From Gemmatimonadales bacterium (GTDB lineage: Bacteria > Gemmatimonadota > Gemmatimonadetes > Gemmatimonadales > GWC2-71-9): DNA of 64,000 bases. The translations under genes and the position numbers were made by a program. Positions 3,494 to 38,909 of the stretch are shown piece by piece; the first letter of the stretch is position 1; each line of letters begins with the position of its first letter. The stretch spans positions 24,717 to 88,716 of the forward strand of contig DATBLR010000107.1 of assembly GCA_036555275.1 (NCBI GenBank), given 5' to 3'. The notes under the pieces were generated by a model. It searched no databases. It was not told where the DNA came from and worked only from the letters and a program-made list of their open reading frames with translations.

Positions 3494-4732
3494 ATGCCAG
3501 GCCGCAATTTCCTGTTCGTCCCCGGTCCCACGAATTCGCCCGACCGCATCCTCAGGGCGATGCATGTGCCCATGGAGGACCACCGGTCGTCATCGTTCCC
3601 CGGGCTCACCGGACCGATCTTCCGCGACCTGAAGCGGGTCTTCCAAAGCGAAACCGGGACGCCCTTCATCTTCCCGGGCACCGGGACCGGCGGCTGGGAG
3701 TCCGCGCTGGTTAACACCCTCTCCCCCGGCGACAAGGTGCTGTCGTTCCGCTATGGCCAGTTCAGTCACCTGTGGATCGACATGATGCAGCGGATGGGGC
3801 TCGACGTGACCGCGATCGACGTCGAATGGGGCGAAGGCGCGCCGCCGGAGACCATTCATGACATCCTGGCCAAGGACGCCAAGCATGGGTACAAGGCCGT
3901 CTGCGTAGTCCACAACGAGACCGCTACCGGGGTGACCAGCGACGTCGCGGCGGTGCGCAAGGCGATGGACGCCGCCAAACATCCCGCCTTCCTGTTCGTG
4001 GACAGCGTCTCGGGCCTCGCCAGCATCGATTTCCGGATGGATGAATGGCGAGTCGATATGGCCGTGACCGGATCCCAGAAGGGCTTCATGCTGCCGGCCG
4101 GTGCGGGCATCGTCTGCGTCAGCCCCCGGGCCCTGGAGGCCGGCAAGACGGCGAAGCTGCCGCGCTGCTACTGGAGCTTCGAGGACATGATCAAGGCGAA
4201 CGCGACGGGTTATTTCCCCTACACGCCGTCCGTGCCGATGCTGTACGGCTTGCGCGAGGCGCTCGACATGCTGTTCGAGGAGGGACTCGAGAACGTGTTC
4301 GCCCGGCACCACCGGCTGGCGGAAGGGTGCCGTCGGGCGGCCGCGGCGTGGGGCCTCACCCTGTGCGCCCGGGCGCCCAAGTGGCATTCCGATACCGTGA
4401 GCGCGATCATGGTGCCCGCGGGCGTGAATGCGGCCGACGTGATCGATGTGGCCTACCGGCGCTACAACTTCGCGTTGGGGGCCGGCCTCAACAAAGTCGC
4501 GGGTAAGTTGTTCCGGATCGGCCACCTGGGCGATCTCAACGAGATCACCCTCGCCGCGGGGTTGGCGGGGACGGAGATGGCCATGCGCGATGTCGGGATC
4601 AAGGTCGAGTTCGGCAAGGGCGTCGCCGCGGCGCAGCAGTACTGGATCGAGACCCAGACTCCGCTGCCGCCCAAGACCGTGGCGGGTCCCGCCGAGGCGG
4701 CGGTGGCGCGCAAGCCGGCGGGCGTCGCGTGA
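3494..4732 (+). CDS. sga: Serine--glyoxylate (alanine--glyoxylate) aminotransferase, class V PLP enzyme
   Basis: 412 aa. N-terminus MPGRNFLFVPGPTNSPDRIL and the SQKGFMLPAG PLP-lysine block. Gene context fits (mcl, mtkAB, hprA, ppc). Confidence 0.85.
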   Translation: MPGRNFLFVPGPTNSPDRILRAMHVPMEDHRSSSFPGLTGPIFRDLKRVFQSETGTPFIFPGTGTGGWESALVNTLSPGDKVLSFRYGQFSHLWIDMMQRMGLDVTAIDVEWGEGAPPETIHDILAKDAKHGYKAVCVVHNETATGVTSDVAAVRKAMDAAKHPAFLFVDSVSGLASIDFRMDEWRVDMAVTGSQKGFMLPAGAGIVCVSPRALEAGKTAKLPRCYWSFEDMIKANATGYFPYTPSVPMLYGLREALDMLFEEGLENVFARHHRLAEGCRRAAAAWGLTLCARAPKWHSDTVSAIMVPAGVNAADVIDVAYRRYNFALGAGLNKVAGKLFRIGHLGDLNEITLAAGLAGTEMAMRDVGIKVEFGKGVAAAQQYWIETQTPLPPKTVAGPAEAAVARKPAGVA

Positions 4733-5670
4733 GCCACACCCGCTACGAGCCGGCTCGCCCCCGGCTGCAGCGGAGCGAGCTGGCCGTACCGGGCTCCAAT
4801 CCGGCCATGTTCGAGAAGGCCCTCGCCAGCGCCGCGGACTACGTCTTCCTGGACCTGGAGGACTCGGTCGCGCCAGCGGACAAGGAACAGGCGAGGATCA
4901 ACGTCATTCGGGGGCTGAACCAGCACGACTGGCGGGGTCATGGCAAGACCATCTGCGTTCGGGTAAACGGGATCGACACCCACTACTACTACCGCGATAT
5001 GGTGGACGTGGTGGAGCAGGCCGGTGAGAAGGTGGAGGTGGTGCTGGTCCCCAAGGTCGGGGTGCCGGGAGACGTGTACCTCACTGACGCCCTGCTGACC
5101 CAGATCGAAGCCGCCAAGGGGATCACCCAGCGGATCGGCATCGACGTGCTCATCGAGACCGCGCTGGGAATGGCGAACGTGGAGGCCATCGCCCAGAGCT
5201 CGAAGCGCCTGGAGGCGATGCACTTCGGGGTGGCCGACTACGCCGCCAGCATGCGGGCGCGGACGGTCTCGATCGGCGGGCTCAACCCCGACTATCCCGG
5301 CGACCAGTGGCATGCCTCTCTCACCCGCATGATCGTGGCGTGCCGGGCCTACGGGCTCAGGCCGATCGACGGGCCGTTCGGGGACTTCAAGGATCCGGAT
5401 GCCTATCTCGCCGCGGCCCGTCGCGGTGCGGCGCTGGGCATCGAGGGGAAGTGGGCGATCCATCCCAGCCAGATCGAGCTGGCGAATCAGGTCTTCACGC
5501 CGCCGGAGGCCGAGGTGACCCGGGCCCGGCGGATCCTTGAGGCGCTGGAGCAGGCCGCGCGAGACGGAAAGGGGGCCGCCCAGCTGGATGGCAAGATGAT
5601 CGACGCCGCCAGTGCGCGCATGGCGCAGAACGTAGTGGAGATGGCGAAGGCGATCGGGGCGAAGCGGTGA
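4729..5670 (+). CDS. mcl: L-malyl-CoA/beta-methylmalyl-CoA lyase (HpcH/HpaI-CitE fold)
   Basis: 313 aa. SELAVPGSNPAMFEKA...DYVFLDLEDSVAP and the KWAIHPSQIE block. GTGA start/stop overlap with sga. Confidence 0.85.
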   Translation: MSHTRYEPARPRLQRSELAVPGSNPAMFEKALASAADYVFLDLEDSVAPADKEQARINVIRGLNQHDWRGHGKTICVRVNGIDTHYYYRDMVDVVEQAGEKVEVVLVPKVGVPGDVYLTDALLTQIEAAKGITQRIGIDVLIETALGMANVEAIAQSSKRLEAMHFGVADYAASMRARTVSIGGLNPDYPGDQWHASLTRMIVACRAYGLRPIDGPFGDFKDPDAYLAAARRGAALGIEGKWAIHPSQIELANQVFTPPEAEVTRARRILEALEQAARDGKGAAQLDGKMIDAASARMAQNVVEMAKAIGAKR

Positions 5671-18172: not shown

Positions 18173-19368
18173 TCGCAACCCTTCATCTGCTCATCACCCC
18201 GCTGGCGACGCTGGTCTTCGCGCTGTGGGCTGCGTGGTTGTCACTGGCTGCGGAGGCAGGCGGCGAAGTGCCCCGCATCCTGGCGGACCAACAGCTCGTC
18301 GAGGGCCGCCGGCTGCCCCCGGCCCGGGCGCTGTACGTCGGTCACCTCGCGCTTCTGGTCCTGGCCGGGGCCGCCGCGGGTACCGCGGACACCTGGTGGG
18401 CCTGGGAGCCGTTCGGCGCCGTCGGCCGCCTGCTGCTGTCGGTCATGCTGGTCTGGGTGGTGGGGACGGTTCTTCCCCGGGTGCTGGCGGCTGTCGCTCC
18501 GGAGCTGCCGCCGCTGGTCCATCCCGGGGCGCTGCGCTCCATCAGGGTCCTGAGTCCGTTGCTGGGGCTCATCGCCTGGGCCGACAGCCGGTTCCGACCC
18601 GCGGCGGCGCCCCCCAGCCGGGAAGGCGGCCAGGTGCGGCGTGACATGCTGCTTGGCCTGTTCTCGCTTGCCGACATGACCGTGGCCGAAGTCATGACCC
18701 CCCGGATCGACATCATCGCGGTGCACAGCGGTGCGGACAGGGACGAGGTGATCGCAACCCTGCGACGCTCGGAGCACGCCCGCATTCTGGTCTACGACGA
18801 GCACCCCGATGCGGTGGCCGGCGTGCTCTACGCCAAGGACATGCTCCCCAGTCTCTCGGAGGGCGAAGAGGCCCCGGAGTGGAATACGCTTATTCGGCCG
18901 GCGGCATTCGTGCCCGAGGGCAAGACTCTGGACCGGCAGCTACGCGACTTCAAGCGCGGCCCCAGCCACCTCGCCGTGGTCGTCGATGAGTTCGGCGGCA
19001 CCGCCGGTCTCATAACCCTGGAGGACATCTTCGAAGAGATCGTCGGCGAGATCCAGGACGAGCACGACACCGACGAAGTCAAACCGGTCGTGGACGACGG
19101 GCAGGGCCACCTGTCGGTCGAGGGCAGCGTGCCCATCGCTGAGCTCGAGGCCCTGCTGGGCCACAGCTTCAACCGGGAAGACGTCAGCACCGTGGGAGGC
19201 CTCGTGCTCGATGCGTTCGGGCGGGTGCCCCGCAGCGGCGAGCGCACTGAAATCGACGGCGTCGAGGTGGCCGTGGAGCAGGTGGCCCGGCGGCGAGTGC
19301 GGCGCGTGGTCGTGACTCGACCCGCGCGGGCCAGCACCCCCGGGTCCGCCGACGAGGGTACGCCGTGA
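18169..19368 (+). CDS. CNNM/CorC-HlyC family protein (TM region + CBS pair + CorC_HlyC domain)
   Basis: ORF 17809..19368 trimmed to GTG 18169 (GTGA overlap with ybeY). Blocks MTPRIDI, LAVVVDEFGGTAGLITLEDI and EIVGEI. Confidence 0.8.
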   Translation: MIATLHLLITPLATLVFALWAAWLSLAAEAGGEVPRILADQQLVEGRRLPPARALYVGHLALLVLAGAAAGTADTWWAWEPFGAVGRLLLSVMLVWVVGTVLPRVLAAVAPELPPLVHPGALRSIRVLSPLLGLIAWADSRFRPAAAPPSREGGQVRRDMLLGLFSLADMTVAEVMTPRIDIIAVHSGADRDEVIATLRRSEHARILVYDEHPDAVAGVLYAKDMLPSLSEGEEAPEWNTLIRPAAFVPEGKTLDRQLRDFKRGPSHLAVVVDEFGGTAGLITLEDIFEEIVGEIQDEHDTDEVKPVVDDGQGHLSVEGSVPIAELEALLGHSFNREDVSTVGGLVLDAFGRVPRSGERTEIDGVEVAVEQVARRRVRRVVVTRPARASTPGSADEGTP

Positions 19369-20573
19369 CCTGGACGGTTCTCAGTATCGGGTTGGTCCTC
19401 GCCATCTTCGGCGCGGTCTCGGGGACGGCGCTCGTGTCACTGAGCCGGCTGGAACTGACCCGGGCAGTCGCGGGCCAGCTTCGGGGCGGCCCCGGGTCGC
19501 TGTCCTGGTTGGCCGAGATGGACCAGTATCTGGGTGTTACGGCCGTGCTCACTTCGTTGGGGGTGATCGTGGTGGGGGCGGCGATCCCGGCGTTCCTGGG
19601 CGGGTTCACCCTGGCGGCCCTGGCACTGCTGCTGGTCCTGGTAGCCATGCCGGCGGTGCTGCTCGCCGGCTACCTGATTCCCCGCTGGCTGGTTCGGCCC
19701 CGGGCGGAGGCGTTGCGCAACCTGGTGGTCCCCCTGCTGCGCCCGCTGGGCCGGGTGGTCGGCCTCGTTCTTCCTGCTCGGGCGGTGCCGGGCGCCGGCG
19801 AACTTCGAGCCTTCTGGAGGGAAGGCGCCGCTTCCGGCCTGCCGGCCGACGATGAGCTGATCATGGTCGGCGGGGTCATGACGTTCACCGAGCGGCCAGT
19901 GCGGGAGCTCATGACACCGCGCACCGATATCGTCGCGGTCTCGGAGGACGACACCCTCGGAGACATCTCCGCCGTGTTCGCGCAGAGCGGCTACAGCCGC
20001 CTCCCGGTGTACCGGGGGACTCTGGACGAGATCGTCGGCATGCTGCACGCCTTCGATCTCTTCAAGCTCAAGCCGGGGGATCCGCTGCCGATCCGCCCGG
20101 TGGCGAACGCGCCCGCGAGCCGCACCTGCGGCAACCTCCTGCTGGACATGCAGCGCGAGCGGCGGCACCTCGCTGTGGTGCTGGACGAGTTCGGCGGAAC
20201 CCTGGGCATCGTCACCTTCGAGGACCTGCTGGAACAGCTGGTCGGTGAGGTCTTCGACGAGGACGAGGGGACGACGGCGCAGGCCGCGCGGAGCGGACCG
20301 ATTCTCTTCGAGGCCGACGGGGCGCTGCCGATCGCGGCCATTGAGGAGCGCTTCGAGCAGAGCCTTCCCTCGGCGGAGACCAGCACGGCGGGAGGCCTCC
20401 TGGCCGAGCTGGCCGGGCGGATCCCCCTCGCCGGCGAACGCTTCTTGATCCGGGGGCTCGAGTTCGAGGTGCTGCAGGCCTCACCGACTCGGGTGGAGCG
20501 GGTGCTCATCCGGCGCGGTCCACCCTCTCCAATCGTGCTCGCTCCCTCGGTGAGTGGCGAGGAACGGCGGTGA
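19365..20573 (+). CDS. Second CNNM/CorC-HlyC family protein (tandem paralogue)
   Basis: 402 aa. Blocks MTPRTDIV, LAVVLDEFGGTLGIVTFEDLLEQLVGEV and a C-terminal transporter-associated domain. Confidence 0.8.
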   Translation: MTWTVLSIGLVLAIFGAVSGTALVSLSRLELTRAVAGQLRGGPGSLSWLAEMDQYLGVTAVLTSLGVIVVGAAIPAFLGGFTLAALALLLVLVAMPAVLLAGYLIPRWLVRPRAEALRNLVVPLLRPLGRVVGLVLPARAVPGAGELRAFWREGAASGLPADDELIMVGGVMTFTERPVRELMTPRTDIVAVSEDDTLGDISAVFAQSGYSRLPVYRGTLDEIVGMLHAFDLFKLKPGDPLPIRPVANAPASRTCGNLLLDMQRERRHLAVVLDEFGGTLGIVTFEDLLEQLVGEVFDEDEGTTAQAARSGPILFEADGALPIAAIEERFEQSLPSAETSTAGGLLAELAGRIPLAGERFLIRGLEFEVLQASPTRVERVLIRRGPPSPIVLAPSVSGEERR

Positions 20574-21919
20574 TTCACCCGGCGGCGATCGTCCGATCGA
20601 TGCTCGATCTGGTCCGCCGCGGGAACCTGCGGGGTTTCCTGGCGCTCGCCGAGAAGGCCGAACCGGCCGATCTGGGTGACGTACTGTCCTCGCTCGACGA
20701 GGAGCAGCGACTGGAGGTGGTGAAGGCGCTTCCCGCCAAGCTCTCCGGTGCGGCCCTGGTTGAGATGCCGGACGAGAGCCAGGCCGAGGAGACCCTGGAG
20801 CACCTGGCCGCCGAGGCTCCCGAGGCGGCCGGTGAGATCGTCGAAGAGCTCCCCGACGATGAGGCCGCCGACCTGGTCGGCGGCCTCAATCCCGAAGATC
20901 AGGAACGCATCCTGGCCGTAGTCGAGGACCGGGAAGACATCGAGGAGCTGCTTCGCTACGACCCGGAGACGGCCGGCGGGCTGATGACGGCCCACGTGGT
21001 CAAGGTACGCAGTACCGATTCGGCTGGCGAAGCCATTGAGTCGCTGCGGCGGCAAGCCGAAGAGATCGAGGACTTCTCTCAGGTGTACGTCGTGGACGAG
21101 CGCAGCCACCTGCTGGGCGTCCTGCCGATCAAGCGACTGGTGATCAGCCCGGCCGCGCGCCGGGTCGGTGAGATCATGGAGGACACCGATATCCGGGTCG
21201 CGCCCGAGACCGACCAGGAAGAGGTGGCGCGGTTGATGAGCCGATACGACGTGCCGGCCGTCGCGGTGGTCGATGGCGGCGGCAAGCTGCTCGGCCAGGT
21301 CACCTTCGACGATGTCATCGACGTGGTCGAAGCGGAGCAGACCGAGGATCTGCTCCAGTTCGGTGGCACCTCGGCGGACGAGGAGCTGGCGGCGCCGTGG
21401 ACCGGTGCGGTGCGCAGTCGGCTCCCCTGGCTTCTGGTCAACCTGATCACCGCGTTCGCAGCCGGCGCGGTCGCGAGCTACTTCAGCGGCAAGGTCGCCG
21501 CGGTGCGGGGCCTGATCTTCTGGATGCCGGTGATCGCGGGGATGGGCGGGAATGGCGGCACCCAGGCACTCGCGGTGAATGTGCGTCGAGTGGCCCTGGG
21601 ACTGGTGCCGGTGGGGAAGGCGGTGCCGATCATCGGCAAGGAAATGCTGGCCGGATGCGCCAACGGCGCGGTCAACGGGATCGCCGCAGCCGTCGTCGCG
21701 TTCGGGCTGGGCCATGGCGCGAATCTGGGCCTGGTGGTGTTCCTTGCGATGACCGGCAATCTGTTCGTCGCGGGATTCGCCGGCGCCTTCATCCCGCTCT
21801 TGCTCAATCGGCTGGGCGTCGATCCGGCGGTCGCGTCCTCCATCTTCGTCACGACGTTTACCGACGTGTGCGGCTACGCCCTGTTGTTCGGGCTGGCGGG
21901 GTGGTTGCTGGGGGTGTAG
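20570..21919 (+). CDS. mgtE: Magnesium transporter MgtE
   Basis: 449 aa: MgtE N-domain, CBS pair, then C-terminal TM helices with a GNGGTQ-type block. Confidence 0.88.
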   Translation: MIHPAAIVRSMLDLVRRGNLRGFLALAEKAEPADLGDVLSSLDEEQRLEVVKALPAKLSGAALVEMPDESQAEETLEHLAAEAPEAAGEIVEELPDDEAADLVGGLNPEDQERILAVVEDREDIEELLRYDPETAGGLMTAHVVKVRSTDSAGEAIESLRRQAEEIEDFSQVYVVDERSHLLGVLPIKRLVISPAARRVGEIMEDTDIRVAPETDQEEVARLMSRYDVPAVAVVDGGGKLLGQVTFDDVIDVVEAEQTEDLLQFGGTSADEELAAPWTGAVRSRLPWLLVNLITAFAAGAVASYFSGKVAAVRGLIFWMPVIAGMGGNGGTQALAVNVRRVALGLVPVGKAVPIIGKEMLAGCANGAVNGIAAAVVAFGLGHGANLGLVVFLAMTGNLFVAGFAGAFIPLLLNRLGVDPAVASSIFVTTFTDVCGYALLFGLAGWLLGV

Positions 21920-29167: not shown

Positions 29168-29196
29168 TTGCGTAGGTGCTTCGCCCATGTGAAGTT
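29168..29196 (+). promoter_or_regulatory. Weak promoter candidate TTGCGT-N17-GAAGTT. It would place the TSS at ATG 29203, making meaB leaderless.
   Basis: Hexamers read directly. The -10 is poor. Confidence 0.25.
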
Positions 29197-29202
29197 ACAT
29201 TC

Positions 29203-30243
29203 ATGGTACCATCACATCTCGTGGCCGACCTCAAGGCCCGCAGGACCCCAGCGGTCGCGCGGGCCATTTCGCTGGTCGAGAACGCCAGGCCTGGCTTCGA
29301 GGAGCTACTTTCCACCATCCACTCCACCCTCGGGCACGCCCAGAGGATCGGAATTACCGGCCCCCCTGGGGCAGGCAAATCCACCCTGACCGGGCAGCTG
29401 GTCCAGGCGTTGCGCGCCCGGGGCCTGACAGTTGCGGTCGTAGCGGTCGATCCCACCAGCCCGTTCACCGGCGGGGCCGTCCTGGGGGACCGGATCCGTA
29501 TGGAGTCGGTCGCTCTGGACCCCGGGGTGTTCATCCGCTCCATGGCGACCCGTGGCTCGCTGGGGGGGCTGGCGACGACCACCCGCGAGGTCTGCGATGT
29601 CCTGGATGCCGGCGGCTTTGACCGGATCCTGATAGAGACGGTGGGGGTTGGCCAGTCGGAGCTCGACGTAGCTCAGAGCGCGGATTCCACCGTCCTGGTG
29701 CTGGTCCCGGAATCGGGCGACGGCATCCAGACCCTGAAATCCGGGGTGATGGAAATCGGCGACATCTTCGTGGTCAACAAGGCGGACCGCCCAGGTGCCG
29801 ACCGCCTGCGCCAGGAGATCGAGATCACTCTTGGAATCCGGAGCGGTACGACCTTTCGGCATGTCCGGCCCCACCACGGCGCGCGATCGACCGACGAGGG
29901 CCGGGTCGCCGAGCCAGCGAGCCGCCGAGCGGTCGAATGGAAGCATCCGGTGCTCGCCACCGTCGCCGCCAGGGGTGAGGGCACCGTCGAACTGGTAACG
30001 GCGCTGGATCTTCACCATGAGTACCTGACGGCGTCGGGAGAGCTGATCGAACGGCGACGGCGCCGTATGTACCAGCGTACCCGCGAGGTGGTGAATCGCG
30101 CGACCCGACAGTGGATCTGGCAGGAAACCGGCGCGGAGCAGGTGATTCGCGATCGCATGGACGACGTAGTCGCAGGACGGCTCAGCCCCTACGAGGTGGC
30201 GGCCGAGGTGCTGGATGCACTCAAGCAGGGGTCTCGGGTATGA
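29203..30243 (+). CDS. meaB: Methylmalonyl-CoA-mutase-associated G3E GTPase (MeaB/ArgK)
   Basis: [10 protein letters not shown]-loop, ETVGVGQSE and VVNKAD. An alternative GTG start lies at 29176. Confidence 0.9.
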
Positions 30244-31952
30244 CGATTTCCGAGCCGGACGCGGTGAAAACGCTGGCGGAGCGTGTGGAAGCCCAGGCAC
30301 AGGAGCTGGAGCGGCTCCGCGCCGAGGTCGCGCGCTGGCGCCGGGAGGTGGCCGCCCTGCCGGTGCGCGACGAGGTGGAGTTCACCAGCATCTCGGGACG
30401 CGGCCTGCAGCCCGTGTACACGGCGCTGGATCTGCCGGAGCACCATGCTGTTGCGTCCGGGCTGCCAGGGGAATTCCCCTATCTTCGGGGCATCCATCCG
30501 ACGATGTACCGCGGGCGGCTGTGGACCATGCGACAGTTCGCCGGCTTCGGCACGGCGAAGGACACCAACGCGCGTTATCACTTTCTGCTGGCCCGCGGTC
30601 AGACCGGGCTGTCGGTCGCCTTCGATTTCCCCACCCTGATGGGATACGACTCCGATCATCCGCGTGCCGAAGGGGAGGTCGGGAAGTGCGGGGTCGCCAT
30701 CTCCAGCCTGAAGGACATGGAAGACCTGTTCGAGGGCATCCCGCTCGATCAGGTATCCACCTCCATGACGATCAACGGGCCCGCGGCGATCGTGTTCTGC
30801 TTCTATGTCGCGGCGGCCGAGCGCCAGGGCGTGGACCCGAGCCGGCTCCATGGCACGATCCAGAACGACATGCTGAAGGAGTACATGGCACAGCATGCTT
30901 GGATCTTCCCGGTGGAACCGGCCCTCAAGGTGATCGTGGACCTGTTCGAGTGGGGCTCGGCCCATACCCCGAAGTGGAACACCATCTCGATCTCTGGCTA
31001 TCACATTCGGGAAGCGGGAGCCAGCGCGGCTCAGGAGCTGGCCTTCACCCTGGCCAACGGCTTCTGCTATGTGGAACACGGCATCGCCCGGGGGCTGGAC
31101 GTGGACAGCTTTGCGCCCCGGCTCTCGTTCTTCTGGGATGTCCACAATGATTTCTTCGAGGAGATTGCCAAGCTGCGGGCCGCGCGGCGGATCTGGGCCC
31201 GCACCATGCGGGACCGGTACGGCGCCCGCAATCCGCGCAGCTGGCAGATGCGGTTCCACTGCCAGACCGCGGGCGTCTCCCTGACCGCCCAGCAGCCCCA
31301 CAACAACATTGTGCGCGTCGCGTACCAGGCGCTCGCTGCGGCGCTCGGGGGCACCCAGTCCCTGCACACCAACGCGCTCGACGAAACGCTCGCCCTGCCG
31401 ACCGAAGAATCGGTTCGCATTGCCCTTCGGACCCAGCAGATCCTGGCCTACGAGACCGGCTTGCCGAACGTCGCGGATCCCCTCGGCGGGTCGTACTATG
31501 TCGAAGCATTGACGGACGGCCTGGAGCGCGAGGCTGCTGGGCTGTTCGCCGAGATCGAGGCCCAGGGCGGCGTGGTCCCGGCGATCGAGTCGGGCTGGTT
31601 CCAGCGGCAGATTGCCCAGTCCGCGGCCCGGTTCCAGAGCGAGATGGAGGCACACCGGCGAATCATTGTCGGGGTGAACGAGTTTGTCGAAGATGGGGAG
31701 CCGCCGGTCGAGATCCTCCGGGTGGGCAACGCGGCCGAAGCGCAGCAGCGCGAACGGATGGCTGCCTTGCGCGCCTCCCGGGACGGCGCCCTGGTGGACG
31801 CCCGGCTCGAGACTTTGCGTCAGGCGGCTCTGGAAGGGCGCAACCTGATTCCCGCGATGCTCGACTGTGCTCGCGCCTATGCCACTCTGTACGAGATCCG
31901 GCACGTGCTCGAACGAGTGTACGGGACGTACCGGGAACCGGTGTTTTTCTAG
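30240..31952 (+). CDS. Coenzyme-B12-dependent acyl-CoA mutase, large (substrate-binding TIM-barrel) subunit; substrate class unresolved
   Basis: ORF 30111..31952 trimmed to ATG 30240 (ATGA overlap with meaB), 570 aa. Blocks [40 protein letters not shown] and [12 protein letters not shown]. No B12-binding domain. Confidence 0.9.
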
Positions 31953-31967
31953 CGTGGGCTTTCGTAA

Positions 31968-32096
31968 CTGGTACCGGGTACCGCGTATCGCGTACCGGTT
32001 CCCGTGGGGCATATACCGGATGCCCGGTCGCCGCATATCGGTCGATTCCTTACCCGTACTCGGTACGCGGTACTGGGTACTCGGCACCAGGTACTC
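31968..32096. repeat. Array-hairpin element, GGTACCG class, between the mutase large subunit and the eRF1-like gene
   Basis: ct ggtaccg ggtaccg cgtatcg cgtaccg g - 54-nt spacer - ccgtact cggtacg cggtact gggtact cggcacc aggtact c. Ends 14 nt before ATG 32111. Confidence 0.85.
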
Positions 32097-32110
32097 ACCC
32101 AGATTCCAGA

Positions 32111-33262
32111 ATGAATCCCGACATCACCAAACTGCTGGCGAAGCTGACCCGGCTCCGGACCGACGATCACCGCATCGTCACCTGTTATCTCAAGATCGAG
32201 CCGCGCGATCGGGCCCGGGGCAAATATCTGATCAAGCTCAAGAACCGGATCCGCGAGGTCGAACACGCGCTGGACCGGCTCGACTTCCCCCGGCAGGTGC
32301 GCGAGGAGGTGAGCGCGGATCTGCGCCGGATTCACGATCAGCTGCGGGAGCCGGCCCGACTGCCCGGAACCCAGGGACTGGCCATTTTCGCCTGCGGGCC
32401 GCTGAAGCTGTTCGAGCTGGTGGGACTCCCCAGTGTGCACCGCTCCCGTCTGGCCGTGGAACGCACCCCGCTGGTGCGGGAGCTGGCCTCGGTGGAGGAC
32501 GAGATCGGCACCCTGCTCACCGTGGTACTGGATCGGACGGCCGGGCGGATCTTCGAGGTGACCGCTTTCGGCGCCGCGGAGCTGGATGGCATCCGGTCCA
32601 ACAGCACCCGCGGCGGCCGCTTCCACAGCGATCGGGCGGACGCTCCTGGCAAGGGCGAGCACACCTACCACAACCGAATTCGCGAAGAGAAGCAACGGCA
32701 CTTCGCCACCATCGCCGAACGGCTGTTCGAGCTGCATCGGCGTCGGCCGGTGCACGGGGTCGTGCTGGCGGGTCCGGGCCGGGAAGCGGGCGCCGTCGCG
32801 GCTTTCCTGCACCCCTACCTCGCGGACCGTTTGATGGGGGTCGTGAGTTTGAACCCGAAGGAGGCCCGGGCCGCCGTCGTGCACACGGCGACGCTCGCCA
32901 CCCGGGCCGAGTTCGAGCGCGAGTCGGAGCGCTCCATTGTCCTGGGCCTGGAGGGTGCGCTCGGAGAAGGTTGGGCGGTGGATGGGGTGGAGGACACCCT
33001 GCGGGCGCTGAGTCGGGGACAGGTGCGGACCCTGCTGGTGGACGGTGATGCCCAGGCTTCCGGATTTCATTCGGCGACGTCCGGCCGAATCGCCGCCCGT
33101 GAGGCCGAGTTGCGCGCCGAGGGTGAGGTCTATCCGGTGCTCGATCTGATAGACGAGGCCATCGAGGAGGCGCTGCGCCAGCGGGTCGAAGTCGAGGTCC
33201 TCTACGACACCGCCGCCCGCGGTGTGATCCACACGCTGGCGGGCCTGCTGCGCTTCCGGTGA
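32111..33262 (+). CDS. eRF1/Pelota-fold protein (bacterial baeRF-type release-factor-like), GGQ loop replaced by GGR
   Basis: 383 aa. STRGGRFHS...HNRIREEKQRHFATIAERLF..VHGVVLAGPG and VDGVEDTLRALSRGQVRTLLV parallel eukaryotic eRF1 [31 protein letters not shown] and [20 protein letters not shown]. Confidence 0.75.
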   Translation: MNPDITKLLAKLTRLRTDDHRIVTCYLKIEPRDRARGKYLIKLKNRIREVEHALDRLDFPRQVREEVSADLRRIHDQLREPARLPGTQGLAIFACGPLKLFELVGLPSVHRSRLAVERTPLVRELASVEDEIGTLLTVVLDRTAGRIFEVTAFGAAELDGIRSNSTRGGRFHSDRADAPGKGEHTYHNRIREEKQRHFATIAERLFELHRRRPVHGVVLAGPGREAGAVAAFLHPYLADRLMGVVSLNPKEARAAVVHTATLATRAEFERESERSIVLGLEGALGEGWAVDGVEDTLRALSRGQVRTLLVDGDAQASGFHSATSGRIAAREAELRAEGEVYPVLDLIDEAIEEALRQRVEVEVLYDTAARGVIHTLAGLLRFR

Positions 33263-33942
33263 CATTTCGGGCGGTCATTTTCGACGCGGGCAACACGCTG
33301 CTTTTCCTCGACTATGCCCGGCTGGCCCCCGCGATGGCGGTGGCGACGGGGGTGCCCCTCACCGCAGCCGGGCTCGAAGCCCAGGCCCGTGCCGCGGCCC
33401 TCGCGCTGGAGCGGAGCGATGGCACCGATCGGGAACGTGCTTCCCGCTATCTCGAGACGCTGTTCCGCCTGGCCGGTGTGCCGGAGGGTCACACCGACGT
33501 AGTGCGTGAGACCCTGTTCGCCCTGCACCGGGAAAAGCACCTGTGGGGCGGCCTCAAACCGGGCACCCGCGAGGCCTTGGATCGGCTGCGTGAAGCGGGC
33601 TACCGGCTGGCCGTGATCTCCAACAGCGACGGCCGGGCCGAGGAAGCGCTGGTCGCAGCCGGGCTCCGGGACTGCTTCGAGCTGGTAATCGACTCCGAGT
33701 TGGTTGGGTTTGAGAAGCCCGACCCACGCATCTTCCACGTCGCGCTGCGGCGCATGGGGCTTGGCCCCGCCGATGTGCTGTACGTGGGGGACATCTACGA
33801 GGTGGACGTCATCGGGGCCCGCCGGGCGGGCATGGATGTGGTGCTGCTTGATCCGCTCGACAAGCACCCGAGCCGCGATGTCCGTACTGCGCGAACCCTC
33901 ACCGAGGTCGTGGAGATGGTCCTGCACGGAAGGAGCGGATAG
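33259..33942 (+). CDS. HAD-superfamily hydrolase (subfamily IA)
   Basis: 227 aa. Motif I VIFDAGNTLL, motif II VISNSD, motif IV YVGDIYEVDVIGA. GTGA overlap with the preceding gene. Confidence 0.8.
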   Translation: MTFRAVIFDAGNTLLFLDYARLAPAMAVATGVPLTAAGLEAQARAAALALERSDGTDRERASRYLETLFRLAGVPEGHTDVVRETLFALHREKHLWGGLKPGTREALDRLREAGYRLAVISNSDGRAEEALVAAGLRDCFELVIDSELVGFEKPDPRIFHVALRRMGLGPADVLYVGDIYEVDVIGARRAGMDVVLLDPLDKHPSRDVRTARTLTEVVEMVLHGRSG

Positions 33943-34377
33943 ATGGTCGCCACAGTCGCTCGCAAACCCCGCGCACGCCCGATTCGGGTCCTGGTCGCCA
34001 AGCCCGGTCTGGACGGGCATGACCGGGGGGCCAAGGTGGTCGCCGCGGCGCTTCGCGATGCGGGTATGGAAGTGATCTATACCGGGCTGCACCAGACCCC
34101 GGAGATGATTGCCACCGCTGCGGTGCAGGAAGACGTGGACGTGGTGGGGCTGTCGATTCTCTCCGGGGCCCATATGACCCTGTTTCCCAGAGTCCGCCGG
34201 CTGCTCGACGAAGCCGGCCGCACCGACCTCCTGCTTACGGGCGGCGGGATCATCCCCCGCGAGGACATGGAGGCGCTGGAGCAACAGGGCGTGGGCAAGC
34301 TGTTCGGCCCCGGTACCCCGACGGGAGACCTGGTGAGCTATATCGAGTCCTGGGCCGCCCAGCATCTCACCAGCTGA
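33943..34377 (+). CDS. Acyl-CoA mutase small subunit (B12-binding domain)
   Basis: 144 aa. [19 protein letters not shown] (DxHxxG base-off/His-on motif) and GGGIIP. Starts on the nucleotide after the HAD stop. Confidence 0.9.
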
Positions 34378-34386
34378 GGGCGGCCG

Positions 34387-36015
34387 GTGACTACGACGAC
34401 TCCTCCCCGGAACTCGCGGCTCAGGAGCCTGACCGAGGAATATCTCGCCCTCGCGGCAAAGCTCCGGGAAGGTGGTGGGGCCAAGCGGGTGGCGAGGATG
34501 CACCAGAAAGGGCAGCTCTCCCCACGCGAGCGGGTTCACGGGCTGCTCGATCCGGGGACCCCCTGGCTCGAGATAGGCCTGCTGGTCGCGTACGACCAAT
34601 ACGACGGCCAGGCGCCCGGCGCGGGGGTGGTTACGGGGCTCGGGGTGGTCGAGGGACACGAAGTCGTGATCGTCGCCAACGATGCCACGGTCAAGGCGGG
34701 CTCCTGGTGGCCCGAGACGATCCGGAAGATCCTGCGGGCACAGGAGATCGCGATGCGCCAGCGGATCCCGATCATCTACCTGGTGGATTCGGCCGGGGTA
34801 AACCTCCCCTATCAGGGCGGCGTGTTCCCGGGACAATACGGGGCCGCCCGAATCTTCTACTACAACTCGCTGATGCGGCGCTACCTGAACGTGCCCCAGA
34901 TCAGCGCGGTCATGGGAAGCTGCATCGCCGGCGGCGCGTACCTCCCGGCGCTGTCCGATGTGATCTTCATGGTCGAAGGCACCAGCTTCATGGGCCTCGG
35001 CGGGCCCAACCTGGTCAAGGGCGCCACTGGCCAGATGGTGGACCCCGATACGCTCGGCGGCGCCGCCATGCACACCTCCGTCTCCGCCGTCGCGCACTAT
35101 CGCGCCGCGACCGATGCGGAATGCCTCAAGATGATCCGCGGCTACGTGGCCCGGTTGCCCAGCCTCCGAGCCGTCGAGCCGCCGAGCCCTCGTGTCTCCG
35201 AGCCGCCCAGCCGGCCCGCCACCGATCTCTACGACCTTCTTCCCACTGACCACCGCATGTCCTACGACATGCACGCACTGCTTGGGTGCTTTCTCGATGG
35301 CGGGAGGCTGGATGAATTCCAGCCGGACATCGCGCGGGAACTGCTCTGCGGTCACGCCTGGATCGAGGGGAGACCGGTCGCGATCCTGGCCAACGCCCGA
35401 ACGGTGATCAAGGGGAAGTCAGGGCAGATGCCGCGGATCGGCGGAATCGTCTACACGGAAAGCGCCGAGAAGGCGGCCTACTTTATCGAAACGGCGAGTC
35501 GGCAGCGGATCCCGCTGCTCTTCGTGCAGGACGTCAGCGGTTTCATGGTCGGCAGCGAGGCGGAGCAGTCAGGCATCATCCGGGCCGGTGCGCGCTTCGT
35601 CGAGGCGATGGCGACCGCAGTCGTCCCCAAACTGGTGTTGACGGTCAACCATGCGTCGGGTGCCGGGTATTACGCCATGGCAGGGCAGGGATTCGACCCC
35701 GACTTCATTCTCAGCTGGCCCACGGGCCGTATGGCTGTCATGGAAGGAGAGTCGGCCGTGGAGGCGGTCCACGGGGTGGAGTTGGCACGGTCCCGCGCGG
35801 AAAAGCGGGCGCCCGCAAAGGAAGTACAGGCCTCCGCCGCCAGCATGCGAGCCGATTACGAGCACCAGCTCGACGCGAAGTATGCGGCAGCGCGCGGCTT
35901 CGTGGACGCCATCGTGACGGTCGAGGAGACCCGCGAGGTACTTGCCTTCCTGCTGCGAACGACGTCGGGCTTCGGCGGCCCGCATATCGGACCCTTCGTG
36001 CTGCCGCCGCTATGA
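34387..36015 (+). CDS. Acyl-CoA carboxylase carboxyltransferase (beta) subunit, methylcrotonyl-/geranyl-CoA carboxylase-like
   Basis: 542 aa. Blocks LSPRERVHGLLDPGTPWLEI, IVANDATVKAGSWWP and AVMGSCIAGGAYLPA. No biotin-carboxylase partner is present in the window. Confidence 0.85.
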   Translation: MTTTTPPRNSRLRSLTEEYLALAAKLREGGGAKRVARMHQKGQLSPRERVHGLLDPGTPWLEIGLLVAYDQYDGQAPGAGVVTGLGVVEGHEVVIVANDATVKAGSWWPETIRKILRAQEIAMRQRIPIIYLVDSAGVNLPYQGGVFPGQYGAARIFYYNSLMRRYLNVPQISAVMGSCIAGGAYLPALSDVIFMVEGTSFMGLGGPNLVKGATGQMVDPDTLGGAAMHTSVSAVAHYRAATDAECLKMIRGYVARLPSLRAVEPPSPRVSEPPSRPATDLYDLLPTDHRMSYDMHALLGCFLDGGRLDEFQPDIARELLCGHAWIEGRPVAILANARTVIKGKSGQMPRIGGIVYTESAEKAAYFIETASRQRIPLLFVQDVSGFMVGSEAEQSGIIRAGARFVEAMATAVVPKLVLTVNHASGAGYYAMAGQGFDPDFILSWPTGRMAVMEGESAVEAVHGVELARSRAEKRAPAKEVQASAASMRADYEHQLDAKYAAARGFVDAIVTVEETREVLAFLLRTTSGFGGPHIGPFVLPPL

Positions 36016-36089
36016 CAGGAGCCGCGGGCTGGGCCGGGTCCCCGGAACCTGCTCGTCTGGGTGGGTGGGCGCTGCCAGGGAGTTCCAGA

Positions 36090-38909
36090 ATGCCGCGTAG
36101 ATCCGTCAGTTCACTGGAAATGACCGCGGCAGTGGCTGCAATGCTGGCTGCCTGCGCGGCCCCGAGCCGGCCTGCGGCACCGGCCCCCCAGCCAGCCCCG
36201 GCCGGGTCGTCCAACGGGAGGGCCGTGCCGGAACCGCTTCCGCTTTTGCCGCCCCGGGAGGCCTGGCTGCGCGGCTGGATGCCGCTCAAACCCACCGGGG
36301 TGGACGAGTTCCTCAAGCTTCACCCGACCTTCGACGGCCGGGGCGTGCTGATCGGAATACTCGACGGCGGTCTCGATCCCGGCGTCGCCGGCCTGCGAAC
36401 GACCACCACCGGAGAAAAGAAACTGTTGGACCTGCGGGATTTCTCCGGTGAAGGAGTCGTGGCCCTCGCACCGGCCGCGATGCAGGGCGACCAGATCTCG
36501 GTGGCGGGCCGGATCCTGGCTGGGGCCTCGCGCCTCCGGGCGCTGGCGGTCGGGAACGCCGTTTTCGGCGGCGCGGTCGCGGAGCGCCCGCTGGGTGAGA
36601 TGCCGGCGTCGGATCTGAACGGCGATCGGGACGACACGGACACTCTCGCCGTCGTGGTCGTTCGGGCCAGCGACGGGTGGGTGCTCTTCGCCGATACCGA
36701 CGGGGACGGCTCGCTCGCCAACGAGAAGCCGGTACACGACTACCTGGTAGCCCGGGAGACGTTCGCCTGGCACTCCGGCGGCCGGCAGCCGACCATTACC
36801 CTGGCCGCGAACTTCCGTGAGGAGCGGGGCACGCCAAAGCTGGACCTCTTCTTCGATACCAGTGCACATGGTTCCCACGTGGCCGGTATTGCCGCCGGGA
36901 ACAACCTGTACGGTGTCAGCGGCTTCACCGGCGTAGCGCCGGGTGCCTATCTGCTCGGATTGAAAATCGCGAACAACGCCCAGGGTGAAATCAGCACGAC
37001 CGGAAGCATGGTGGCGGCAATGGCCTACGCGATCGGCTTTGCGCGGGCCCGCCGATTGCCGCTGGTCCTGAACCTGAGCTTTGGGGTGGGGAATGAGAGC
37101 GAAGGGAGCGCCCGGATTGACGCCGTGGTGGATTCGGTCCTGGCGGCCAATCCGGACGTGGTCTTCGCCATCAGCGCCGGGAATGACGGCCCCGGGCTGA
37201 CCACCATGCAGTATCCCGGGTCCGCCACCAGGGCCGTCACGGTGGGGGCGACTTTTCCTTCGGTGTTTCTGGGCGCCGCCGGGAAGGGAGGCGACCCCAT
37301 CGCCTACTTCAGCTCACGCGGCGGGGAGCTCGCCAAGCCGGACATCGTGGCTCCCGGCCTTGCCTACTCGACGGTGCCGCGCTGGAACACCGGGGACGAG
37401 CGCAAGGGCGGGACCAGCATGGCCGCTCCCCACGCGGCGGGGCTTGCCGCGCTGCTGGTCTCCGGGCTGATCCAGGAAAAACGCCGTATCGAAGCTCGGT
37501 TGATCCGGCAAGCTCTCATGGTGACGGCGCGCCCCCTCGCGACGGTCAACTACCTCGACGACGGGACCGGTCAGCCCAACGTGGCCGCAGCCTGGCGATG
37601 GTTGGCGGCGGCCAGGCCGGTCCCCGAAATCGCCGTCCGGGCGGTACACAATGGAGTCACTGCGGCCTTCCAGGAGCGGGAACTCGGCGTGCCGGTGGAC
37701 ACTCAGCAGGTCTTCGAAGTCGGTCTCGCCCCTGACGCGGCCGAGACCGAGGTCGCGGTGCGCTCGAACCGGCTCTGGCTGCGCGCCCCAGCGCGTCTGC
37801 GGCTTCGGAGTGGGGCGAACCGGGTCAACCTCACCTATCAGGCCTCGGCCCTCTCCCGGCCCGGTGTATACACAGGCGTGGTGACCGGCTGGATCAGCGA
37901 CACCCTGGCGGGGCCAGTGTTCCGACTGGTGAACACCGTTGTCGTCGCGGACACAGGGAACCCGATCATCGCCAGAGTCAGCGCCATCCCGGCGGGCGGC
38001 GAAGGGCGGGTCTTTTTTGCGGCCACGACCGGACGGCCCTTCGCGGTGTCCTTCGCAACCCAGGCGGCCGGAGAGCAGGTCCTGGCATACCTCCACGAGC
38101 CAGGGGGACAGCCCTACCGTGAGGAGAACGGCATTGGCGCGGGCCATGACGACCAGGCCGGGGTCTACGTCGTTGATGCCCGCGACGTCGTCTCCGGGCT
38201 GTATGAGGCGGTGGCCGTCGCGCCCCCACTGAATGGAGCGTCCGCCACGATTTCAGTGCAACAGAGTCCCCTGACGATCGGCGTGGACCATACCCCTGAC
38301 GGGCTGGCGGTGCGGCTCGGGAATATGAGCACTGCAACAGTCACCAGCCAGCCGTTCGTGGTGCTGGTCGGCGCGGCACGTGAGGAGCGCCTTGCCGCCC
38401 AGGGTTCCGACCGGCGGCACATCCGATTCCGGCTTCCCGATTGGGCCGTCCACGCGACGGTCGATGTGGAGATGGATCGGGCCCAGTGGCCGACATTCAC
38501 GGATTTCGGCGTGACCATGCTGGCTGGGGATGGACGGAAGCTGGGAAAGGCGCCGCTCAACTACGCGTTCGGTCGGCTCCACGTGGATCTCCCCCGGGGC
38601 GCAGCGGCGCCGGCGGAAGCGGAGGTCGTGCTCTCTCCCGGCTTCGCCGACCCGCAGCGCGATCAGCGCTGGGCCGCCACAGTCTCGATCCGGCTCTATG
38701 CCGACTCGGCCCACGTCAACCGGCTCGCCGGCCAGTCGGTCAGCGTGGCTCCCGGGGCGACCGGCGCCGTGGTCTTTCCACTCACGGCGTCGGCACTGCA
38801 ACTGGGGGAGGCCTTTGCCCCCCTGGGGATCGTGGTGGTGCCGGAGGGAGAGCGGACCTGGACCCGCGAGGCCACGCTGCAGCCGGCCGACATGACGCGC
38901 CGTCGATGA
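36090..38909 (+). CDS. S8 subtilase lipoprotein with tripeptidyl-peptidase-II-like architecture
   Basis: ORF 36012..38909 trimmed to ATG 36090 (lipobox LAAC). Asp ILDGGLDPG, about 175-aa insert, His [13 protein letters not shown], Asn AISAGNDGP, Ser [12 protein letters not shown]. Long C-terminal beta-rich extension. Confidence 0.8.

Follow-up and report, generated by a model that had tools for sequence, protein, structure and literature searches.

A Balon-like baeRF gene embedded in a conserved acyl-CoA mutase operon of Gemmatimonadales

Balon, Msmeg1130 and Rv2629 are bacterial homologues of aeRF1 that were placed by cryo-EM in the A site of hibernating ribosomes, partly together with EF-Tu·GDP (PMC10901736). 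Their genes were reported to lie in stress-response operons with RaiA/HPF, Hsp20, Usp, RtcB and others. Here, we describe a gene of the same kind in a stretch of 64,000 nucleotides (nt), hereafter the window, from a Gemmatimonadales bacterium (assembly GCA_036555275.1, contig DATBLR010000107.1, positions 24,717 to 88,716 of the forward strand). The gene, a member of family 10 of the bacterial eRF1-like proteins (baeRFs), is located between the genes for the large and small subunits of an acyl-CoA mutase (Table 1). Our reading, held with moderate confidence, is that it encodes a Balon-type, non-catalytic ribosome factor of the A site, and that the gene became fixed in a catabolic operon in an ancestor of the Gemmatimonadales. 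The protein kind is known from Balon and other baeRFs, of which this is a divergent member; new are its conserved operon context, which seems not to have been reported before, and a distinctive PGxGE loop that has no Gln. The public labels of the orthologous genes are “peptide chain release factor subunit 1 (eRF1)” or “hypothetical protein”.

The M-domain of the window baeRF passed the gathering cut-offs of two Pfam models, baeRF_family10 (PF18854; 37.8 bits against a cut-off of 27.1) and baeRF_family2 (36.1 bits against 26.9). The family 10 model was matched by all 49 members tested, namely the window protein and 48 distant relatives, with a best E-value of 2.9e-33. In NCBIfam, the only full-length matches were to three “ribosome hibernation factor” models (NF052287, NF052288 and NF052289), which are built around MSMEG_1130, Rv2629 and AOC03_06830, that is, Balon and its mycobacterial homologues. 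A single-sequence search against the PDB gave only a marginal match to eRF1 (E = 0.02), and profiles were therefore needed. A profile of the orthologues matched eRF1 at 1e-5 and aRF1 at 1.7e-5. The wider family profile, made from the window protein and 48 distant full-length relatives, matched MSMEG_1130 over its whole length at 1.3e-35, aRF1 (4af1) at 9e-30 over positions 6–379, Rv2629 at 4e-20 and Balon of P. urativorans at 4e-16. HMMER alignments to eRF1 placed NRIREEKQRHF opposite ARLREEKRHNY, VHGVVLAGPG opposite VKGLILAGSA, and VDGVEDTLRALSRGQVRTLLV opposite YGIDDTLKALDLGAVEKLIV, thereby reproducing the three local similarities to eRF1 that a preliminary description of the locus had pointed out.

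An AlphaFold2 model built on 35 orthologues had a mean predicted local distance difference test score (pLDDT) of 84.1 and a predicted template modeling (TM) score of 0.72. The sole weak region was a long loop comprising residues 163–180, where the pLDDT was 55–65. The best match of this model in a Foldseek search of the PDB was the ribosome-bound Msmeg1130 Balon (8v9j/8v9l; E = 4.5e-23, TM 0.67–0.71), ranked ahead of aRF1 (E = 8e-20, TM 0.50). TM scores were 0.61–0.65 for P. urativorans Balon, 0.58–0.60 for Rv2629, about 0.5 for eRF1, and about 0.4 or lower for Pelota/Dom34, which matched at E = 1e-10 or weaker. The full-length matches to Balon, aRF1, eRF1 and Pelota were all at a Foldseek probability of 1.00. 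As modeled, the window baeRF is a three-domain (N-M-C) protein of the aeRF1 superfamily, with an RNase-H-like M-domain and a Pelota-type C-domain. The eRF1/Pelota fold proposed in the preliminary description, for which it had suggested a comparison with the Pfam and baeRF models, was thus borne out by Pfam, by the AlphaFold2 model and by Foldseek. Its statement that baeRFs lack an experimentally defined function is outdated, since the Balon paper (Nature 2024, PMC10901736) provides a role in hibernation and the Balons are the best structural and profile matches of this protein.

The M-domain loop is located where aRF1 and eRF1 carry the GGQ loop. In the 35 orthologues it followed the pattern T166-R167-G168-G169-[RK]170 ... 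P179-G180-x-G182-E183, in which R167 and G180 were present in 35/35 sequences, G182 and E183 in 34/35, G168 in 33/35 and G169 in 26/35. No column from 163 to 189 contained a conserved Gln. The preliminary description had read the loop as GGR in place of GGQ. The catalytic Gln is indeed missing in either register, but this particular pairing is probably mis-registered, and the PGxGE segment is better conserved. HMMER and one MAFFT alignment placed the eRF1 GRGGQS or the family 10 GGWSQ opposite P179-G-K-G-E-H-T185 (with GRGGQS on G180-K-G-E-H-T185) and not opposite R167-G-G-R170, and in one alignment the family 10 Gln fell on E183. A second MAFFT alignment paired G168-G169 with the GG of GGWSQ. 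Because the two MAFFT alignments pair the loop differently, its register is ambiguous, and “GGR for GGQ” is at best one of two registers. The helix that follows the loop was aligned to RFARLREEKRHNY of eRF1; Burroughs and Aravind read the Arg-rich helix as a contact to large-subunit rRNA (PMC6514570).

A well-conserved catalytic-loop Gln was described for family 10 by the same authors (PMC6514570). Distant family 10 members had a GGxSQ-type loop (QGGWSQARYQRH), and other members GGW-GY-EE. In contrast, the Gemmatimonadales clade, with the loop TRGGRFHSDRxxAPGxGE, has no Gln, carries an insertion of 12–13 residues relative to the GGWSQ members, and has a conserved Glu near the Gln position. These loops bear on the alternative that the protein is a rescue or quality-control factor acting in the A site of stalled ribosomes, either non-catalytic, like Pelota/Dom34, or hydrolyzing peptidyl-tRNA through the PGxGE/TRGG[RK] loop. 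We regard such a role as unlikely. The missing Gln, the conserved Glu in its place and the insertion speak against hydrolysis, even though family 10 was flagged as the likeliest catalytic group of baeRFs (PMC6514570), some of its distant members retain GGWSQ, and the loop of the Gemmatimonadales proteins is conserved rather than degenerate, as the column counts show. The predicted structure is also nearer to Balon than to Pelota or eRF1, and near relatives pair with HPF genes (see below). Conversely, an operon of low expression would be a better fit for a rescue factor, which acts sub-stoichiometrically, than for a hibernation factor that is needed stoichiometrically. With Pelota/Dom34, which is a non-catalytic A-site binder, the window baeRF shares the superfamily and the lack of a catalytic Gln. 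It differs in its weaker structural match and in having no Sm-fold N-domain with loop A, and bacteria have no ABCE1 partner.

The N-domain points to Balon more specifically. All five residues of the EPRDR loop were invariant in the 35 orthologues, the segment comprising residues 26–46 has a net charge of +6, and the N-domain as a whole has a pI of 10.3. A profile of the N-domain alone retrieved just two Balon N-domains from the PDB (8e-5 and 4e-4), while the aRF1 N-domain was not significant (E = 1.2). The sequence aligned to the EPRDR loop is REHPAND in P. urativorans, which includes the only His-Pro of its aligned N-domain stretch, and DPTQ in MSMEG_1130. Neither of the stop-codon motifs NIKS and YxCxxxF was present in the window baeRF sequence. 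The insertion in the C-domain was modeled as two strands (residues 318–321 and 340–343) and a helix (residues 331–337), and its residues G318 and G325 are conserved as far as MSMEG_1130. The Cys ligands at this site, CxxC...CPxC, are found in distant family 10 members and in aRF1, and are half-retained in the more distant orthologues.

In common with Balon, therefore, the protein has a three-domain aeRF1-like architecture (TM 0.58–0.71), a Balon-type N-domain, a C-domain insertion at the β-hairpin site, and neither NIKS nor GGQ; like Balon, it also evolves rapidly and has several paralogues per lineage in different contexts. It differs from Balon by having EPRDR in place of the HP-motif loop, its own TRGG[RK]...PGxGE loop and an extra helix in the C-domain insertion. 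With aRF1 and eRF1 it shares homologous M- and C-domains, the post-loop Arg-rich helix, the VLAG strand and the GxxxTLxAL...G.V..L motif, but it lacks GGQ and NIKS, its N-domain is not detectably aRF1-like, its zinc ribbon is degenerate, and the TM score is only about 0.5.

The gene context was compared in 80 loci, taking one genome per species; all but one of the loci were labeled Gemmatimonadales or Gemmatimonadota, and the orthologues were 51–79% identical. (Within the Gemmatimonadales, the identity range of the orthologues was 51–83%.) Neighboring genes were counted by tblastn with the neighboring proteins of the window, and the denominators are the assessable loci. The mutase large-subunit gene was directly upstream of baeRF on the same strand in 75/78 loci, MeaB was upstream in 66/68, and the gene for the B12-binding small subunit was downstream in 70/72. 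The carboxyltransferase, S8 protease and AtuA genes followed in the same order across the loci. The spacer between the large-subunit gene and baeRF was mostly 0–80 nt. In the window, the GTG start of the HAD gene at position 33259 overlaps the TGA of baeRF, which ends at 33262, in a GTGA junction, and the HAD gene ends at 33942, directly abutting the small-subunit gene at 33943. These junctions, and the reading frame of baeRF itself, were found exactly as they had first been described. The synteny, the short spacers and the GTGA overlap also back the earlier proposal of co-expression with the mutase/MeaB system, and baeRF is almost certainly co-transcribed with these genes, to judge from their sequence arrangement. 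The idea that the arrangement might be a chance insertion unique to the source genome was rejected by the 80-species synteny.

The HAD gene was not a constant member of this arrangement. Of the 72 loci whose downstream sequence was long enough, only 38 had it between baeRF and the small-subunit gene; in about half of the loci it was missing, and the small-subunit gene then followed directly after baeRF. The HAD enzyme was therefore rejected as an obligate partner of baeRF. The preliminary description had asked whether a baeRF–HAD pair always lies between the mutase subunits, which is not the case, and had raised the possibility of a repurposed fold that, together with the HAD phosphatase, acts on a non-ribosomal substrate, which is unlikely because the HAD gene is optional.

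A broader form of this alternative is that the protein was repurposed for the mutase system. It might, for example, assist MeaB or the B12 subunit in assembly or repair, or act on a non-ribosomal substrate jointly with the HAD phosphatase. In 66–75 loci baeRF has the gene for the MeaB GTPase upstream and is located exactly between the genes for the two mutase subunits, a position that would fit such a role, and the C-domains of the aeRF1 family are GTPase-binding modules. However, MeaB belongs to a GTPase class other than EF-Tu and eRF3, and we know of no characterized split mutase of this type that needs such a partner. Three lineages (L054, L078 and L085/L086 with P0121, 53% identity) retain baeRF with no mutase or MeaB genes nearby; in L054, L078 and L085 it is located, with or without HAD, directly upstream of the carboxyltransferase and S8 genes. 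The retention of baeRF beside the carboxyltransferase in lineages that have no mutase argues against a mutase-specific role. In addition, the RNA-binding hallmarks of the protein (the basic N-domain and the Arg-rich helix) are invariant, and its near relatives are found beside HPF genes, not mutases. We consider repurposing very improbable. Equally little credence is given to a functional integration with the B12 mutase and MeaB, in which the protein would bring about translational shutdown in response to cobalamin status or to the flux of branched-chain acyl-CoA catabolism, or would have exchanged EF-Tu for MeaB in mutase assembly or repair; if true, either version would newly connect the fold of a translation factor with cofactor-dependent metabolism. 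No literature link between Balon-like proteins and mutases was found.

Gene order may also be a frozen accident, that is, a single ancient insertion that was inherited vertically through the Gemmatimonadales and means only passive co-transcription. The S8 protease, which is functionally unrelated, is equally syntenic across the 80 loci; gene order is therefore not specific evidence of a partnership between baeRF and the mutase. The syntenic loci all belong to one order, relatives of 47% identity or less are found in other contexts, and the mutase-less lineages keep baeRF. Nevertheless, the arrangement persists down to 51% protein identity while the adjacent HAD gene is present or absent by lineage, and the spacers are tight or overlapping; such retention usually indicates selection on co-expression. 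A frozen accident is less likely than not.

The closest relatives outside the orthologue group were located in other contexts. P0124 (47% identical) has a gene for a chimeric S30AE-CSD HPF 21 nt downstream, and P0126 (45%) is part of a cluster of HPF-CSD, inositol phosphatase, DUF4342, baeRF and MgtE genes. After the Gemmatimonadales paralogue P0137 (40%) come genes for DUF4342, FtsH and PRTase. P0147 (38%) is oriented divergently to a group of BON, Usp, Usp and nitroreductase genes, and P0140 (41%) is between AsnC and MarR regulator genes, beside a NiFe hydrogenase cluster. The HPF, Usp/BON and FtsH neighborhoods are of the stress and hibernation kind reported for Balon. The chimeric HPF genes (Ribosomal_S30AE plus a cold-shock domain) were located three genes from the baeRF relative in L087 (919–1449) and adjacent to it in L090 (3381–3929), in agreement with a 2025 preprint, according to which genes for chimeric HPFs frequently neighbor those for Balon. 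A small DUF4342 gene was also observed beside family 10 paralogues in L083/L084 (8194–8532 and 1355–1693, followed by FtsH and PRTase genes) and in L087 (2422–2754), and DUF4342 may be a dedicated partner of baeRF family 10.

The rate of evolution is another feature in common with Balon, for which a preprint reported unusually fast evolution. Median identity was 58.6% for baeRF, compared to 79.5% and 83.6% for the large and small mutase subunits, respectively, and 76.7% for the carboxyltransferase. In 60/61 loci baeRF had the lowest identity of these four genes, making it the fastest-evolving conserved gene of the core operon.

Balon factors bind the A site without the need for mRNA and inhibit translation. 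Taken as a Balon-type factor, the window baeRF would bind the ribosomal A site without hydrolyzing peptidyl-tRNA, and would park or protect ribosomes under nutrient limitation. Contact to the decoding center would be made by the N-domain, which is basic and carries the invariant EPRDR loop. In the M-domain, the long Gln-less loop and the Arg-rich helix would come near the peptidyl-transferase center, and the C-domain with its degenerate zinc-ribbon/β-hairpin insertion would contact EF-Tu. We infer this ribosome binding, and hibernation rather than rescue, from fold and context. The operon runs in the order MeaB, mutase large subunit, baeRF, optional HAD, mutase B12 subunit, carboxyltransferase, S8 protease, AtuA and enoyl-CoA hydratase. 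Being embedded in this catabolic operon, baeRF would be made whenever the operon is transcribed. A plausible rationale for co-expression would be a scavenging or starvation program with a secreted protease and branched-chain catabolism.

Several observations weigh against the assignment as a Balon-type A-site factor. Identity to the characterized Balons is only 18–19%, and the equivalog cut-offs of the NCBIfam models were all missed by the window baeRF (49.6 bits against 480, 47.0 against 320 and 46.4 against 330), so that on sequence it is related to the three defined hibernation orthologue groups but is a member of none. In Balon, the HP motif of the N-domain loop contacts A1492/A1913; a literal His-Pro was not found in the N-domain loop of the window baeRF. 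The M-domain loop, about 25 residues long, flexible and partly conserved, sits at the position of the lasso-like loop/bL27 trap of Balon, but these specific elements are not identifiable from the sequence. The gene is part of a catabolic mutase/carboxylase operon, in contrast to the stress operons of Balon, and no HPF/RaiA gene was seen within the window operon. A factor required at levels similar to those of ribosomes would also be an odd passenger in an operon of low-abundance enzymes. Finally, as mentioned above, Burroughs and Aravind singled out family 10 as possibly catalytic (PMC6514570), and some distant members carry GGWSQ.

Table 1. Features of the baeRF locus in window coordinates (aa, amino acids; ORF, open reading frame).
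Feature	Position (nt)	Strand	Remarks
MeaB-type G-protein chaperone of mutase	29176–30243	+	PF03308, 300 bits
Acyl-CoA mutase large (substrate-binding) subunit	30237–31952	+	PF01642, 756 bits; TIGR00641; ORF opens at 30111, probable ATG at 30237
Spacer hairpin of inverted GGTACNN heptad arrays	31953–32110	+	158 nt; arms 31964–31997 and 32061–32094
Balon-like baeRF (family 10) gene	32111–33262	+	383 aa, ATG start; ORF and translation
Approximate domains of baeRF protein			N, aa 1–120; M, aa 121–286; C, aa 287–383
Invariant N-domain loop E30-P-R-D-R34	32198–32212	+	Followed by basic KYLIKLKNR; position of Balon HP-motif loop
Extended flexible loop, aa 163–187	32597–32671	+	At GGQ-loop position; SNSTRGGRFHSDRADAPGKGEHTYH; TRGG[RK] and PGxGE, no conserved Gln
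Start of post-loop helix	32672–32743	+	Invariant R189, I190, R191, R196, H197; Arg-rich helix characteristic of baeRF-1 proteins
C-domain insertion, aa 314–344	33050–33142	+	At aRF1 zinc-ribbon/Balon EF-Tu-binding β-hairpin site; Cys ligands lost
HAD-IA family hydrolase	33259–33942	+	Optional cluster member; PF00702, PF13419; sub-cut-off TIGR02253, TIGR02252
Acyl-CoA mutase small (B12-binding) subunit	33943–34377	+	144 aa; PF02310; TIGR00640, 171 bits
Acyl-CoA carboxylase carboxyltransferase subunit	34387–36015	+	PF01039, 429 bits
S8 subtilase	36012–38909	+	PF00082; same position in most loci, 43–69% identity

Two other long open reading frames overlap the baeRF gene, one of 438 aa on the opposite strand (31949–33265) and one of 393 aa in another frame of the forward strand (31867–33048). 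Both are probably high-GC artefacts, because homologues back only the forward frame at 32111. Downstream of the genes listed in Table 1, the window array also includes genes for an AtuA-ferredoxin domain protein and for an enoyl-CoA hydratase.

The best sequence match of the mutase large subunit in the PDB was the split 2-hydroxyisobutyryl-CoA mutase HcmA (4r3u; E = 1e-166), and the mutase is a split HcmA/Icm-like enzyme that is interrupted at the level of gene order only. The large subunit reads RQFAGFGT and MAQHAW at sites where methylmalonyl-CoA mutase has RQYAGFST and an Arg; isobutyryl-CoA-type mutases typically show these Phe and Gln substitutions. Methylmalonyl-CoA is therefore probably not the substrate, and, judged by its genes, the operon looks like one for branched-chain or terpenoid acyl-CoA catabolism. 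Motif I of the HAD protein is VIFDAGNTLL, in which, as read from the sequence alone, the second acid of the usual DxD (or REG-2-like DxxD) seems to be replaced; the enzyme may be an atypical phosphatase.

The array-hairpin that had been noticed in front of the baeRF gene is real, both by its fold energy and by its inverted arrays. Its arms are 34 nt long and 82% complementary, with a minimum free energy of −75.6 kcal/mol (z = −3.98), and 11 of the 18 GGTACNN matches in the window are located in this spacer, where about one would be expected for the whole window. A conserved regulatory RNA or element was rejected, since the spacer had no match in Rfam and the GGTACNN array-hairpin was absent from all orthologous loci compared. 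It looks like a genome-specific repeat insertion outside any conserved regulatory design. Other repeat hairpins were observed at the same junction, of the AGCTNNN type in L007 and of the GGGAAGG type in L016, L027 and L042, with L008 also among these loci. Such array-hairpins may form a family of intergenic elements whose repeat units differ from genome to genome.

Scans for sigma-70 promoters and terminators gave nothing above background, and a terminator-like match at 31928 falls in conserved C-terminal codons of the mutase gene. No sigma-54 site (TGGCAC-N5-TTGC) was found near the operon, and matches in the window were below chance; control through sigma-54 by a divergent activator/kinase pair was rejected on this basis. 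PADLOC returned no match for the baeRF or HAD proteins and only a generic subtilase match for the S8 protein, and an association of baeRF and HAD with anti-phage defense was dropped.

Two loci in the synteny comparison were unusual. L061 (1700–6001) is rearranged: a partial match to MeaB precedes an oppositely oriented mutase-like gene of 36% identity, and baeRF itself comes after about 1.9 kb of other sequence; downstream, the order of B12 subunit, carboxyltransferase and S8 genes is intact. L022 (JBLMWC010000099.1) is labeled “Bacillota bacterium”, yet has the full Gemmatimonadales-type array at 56–87% identity, and is probably a mis-binned or mislabeled contig of a metagenome-assembled genome. 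Genes for CorC/CNNM-CBS and MgtE magnesium transporters were observed upstream of the baeRF cluster in the window (19365–21919) and in L085 (1–3614), and in L087 the gene directly after the baeRF paralogue encodes MgtE (4018–5040). A neighborhood of Mg2+ transport and ribosome-factor genes could be recurrent.

Balon-type factors were recognized only in 2024. The orthologue group described here provides a clean, order-wide case of a Balon-like gene in a catabolic operon rather than in a classical stress operon, and genes now labeled eRF1 or hypothetical are better treated as Balon-like. Family 10 has diversified into proteins with Gln-bearing GGWSQ loops, which are maybe catalytic, beside others with long Gln-less PGxGE loops, and these natural variants could serve to separate the functions of release, rescue and hibernation. 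Should the co-expression prove meaningful, these soil bacteria would have linked the parking of their ribosomes to nutrient scavenging through a protease and the breakdown of branched-chain acyl-CoA.

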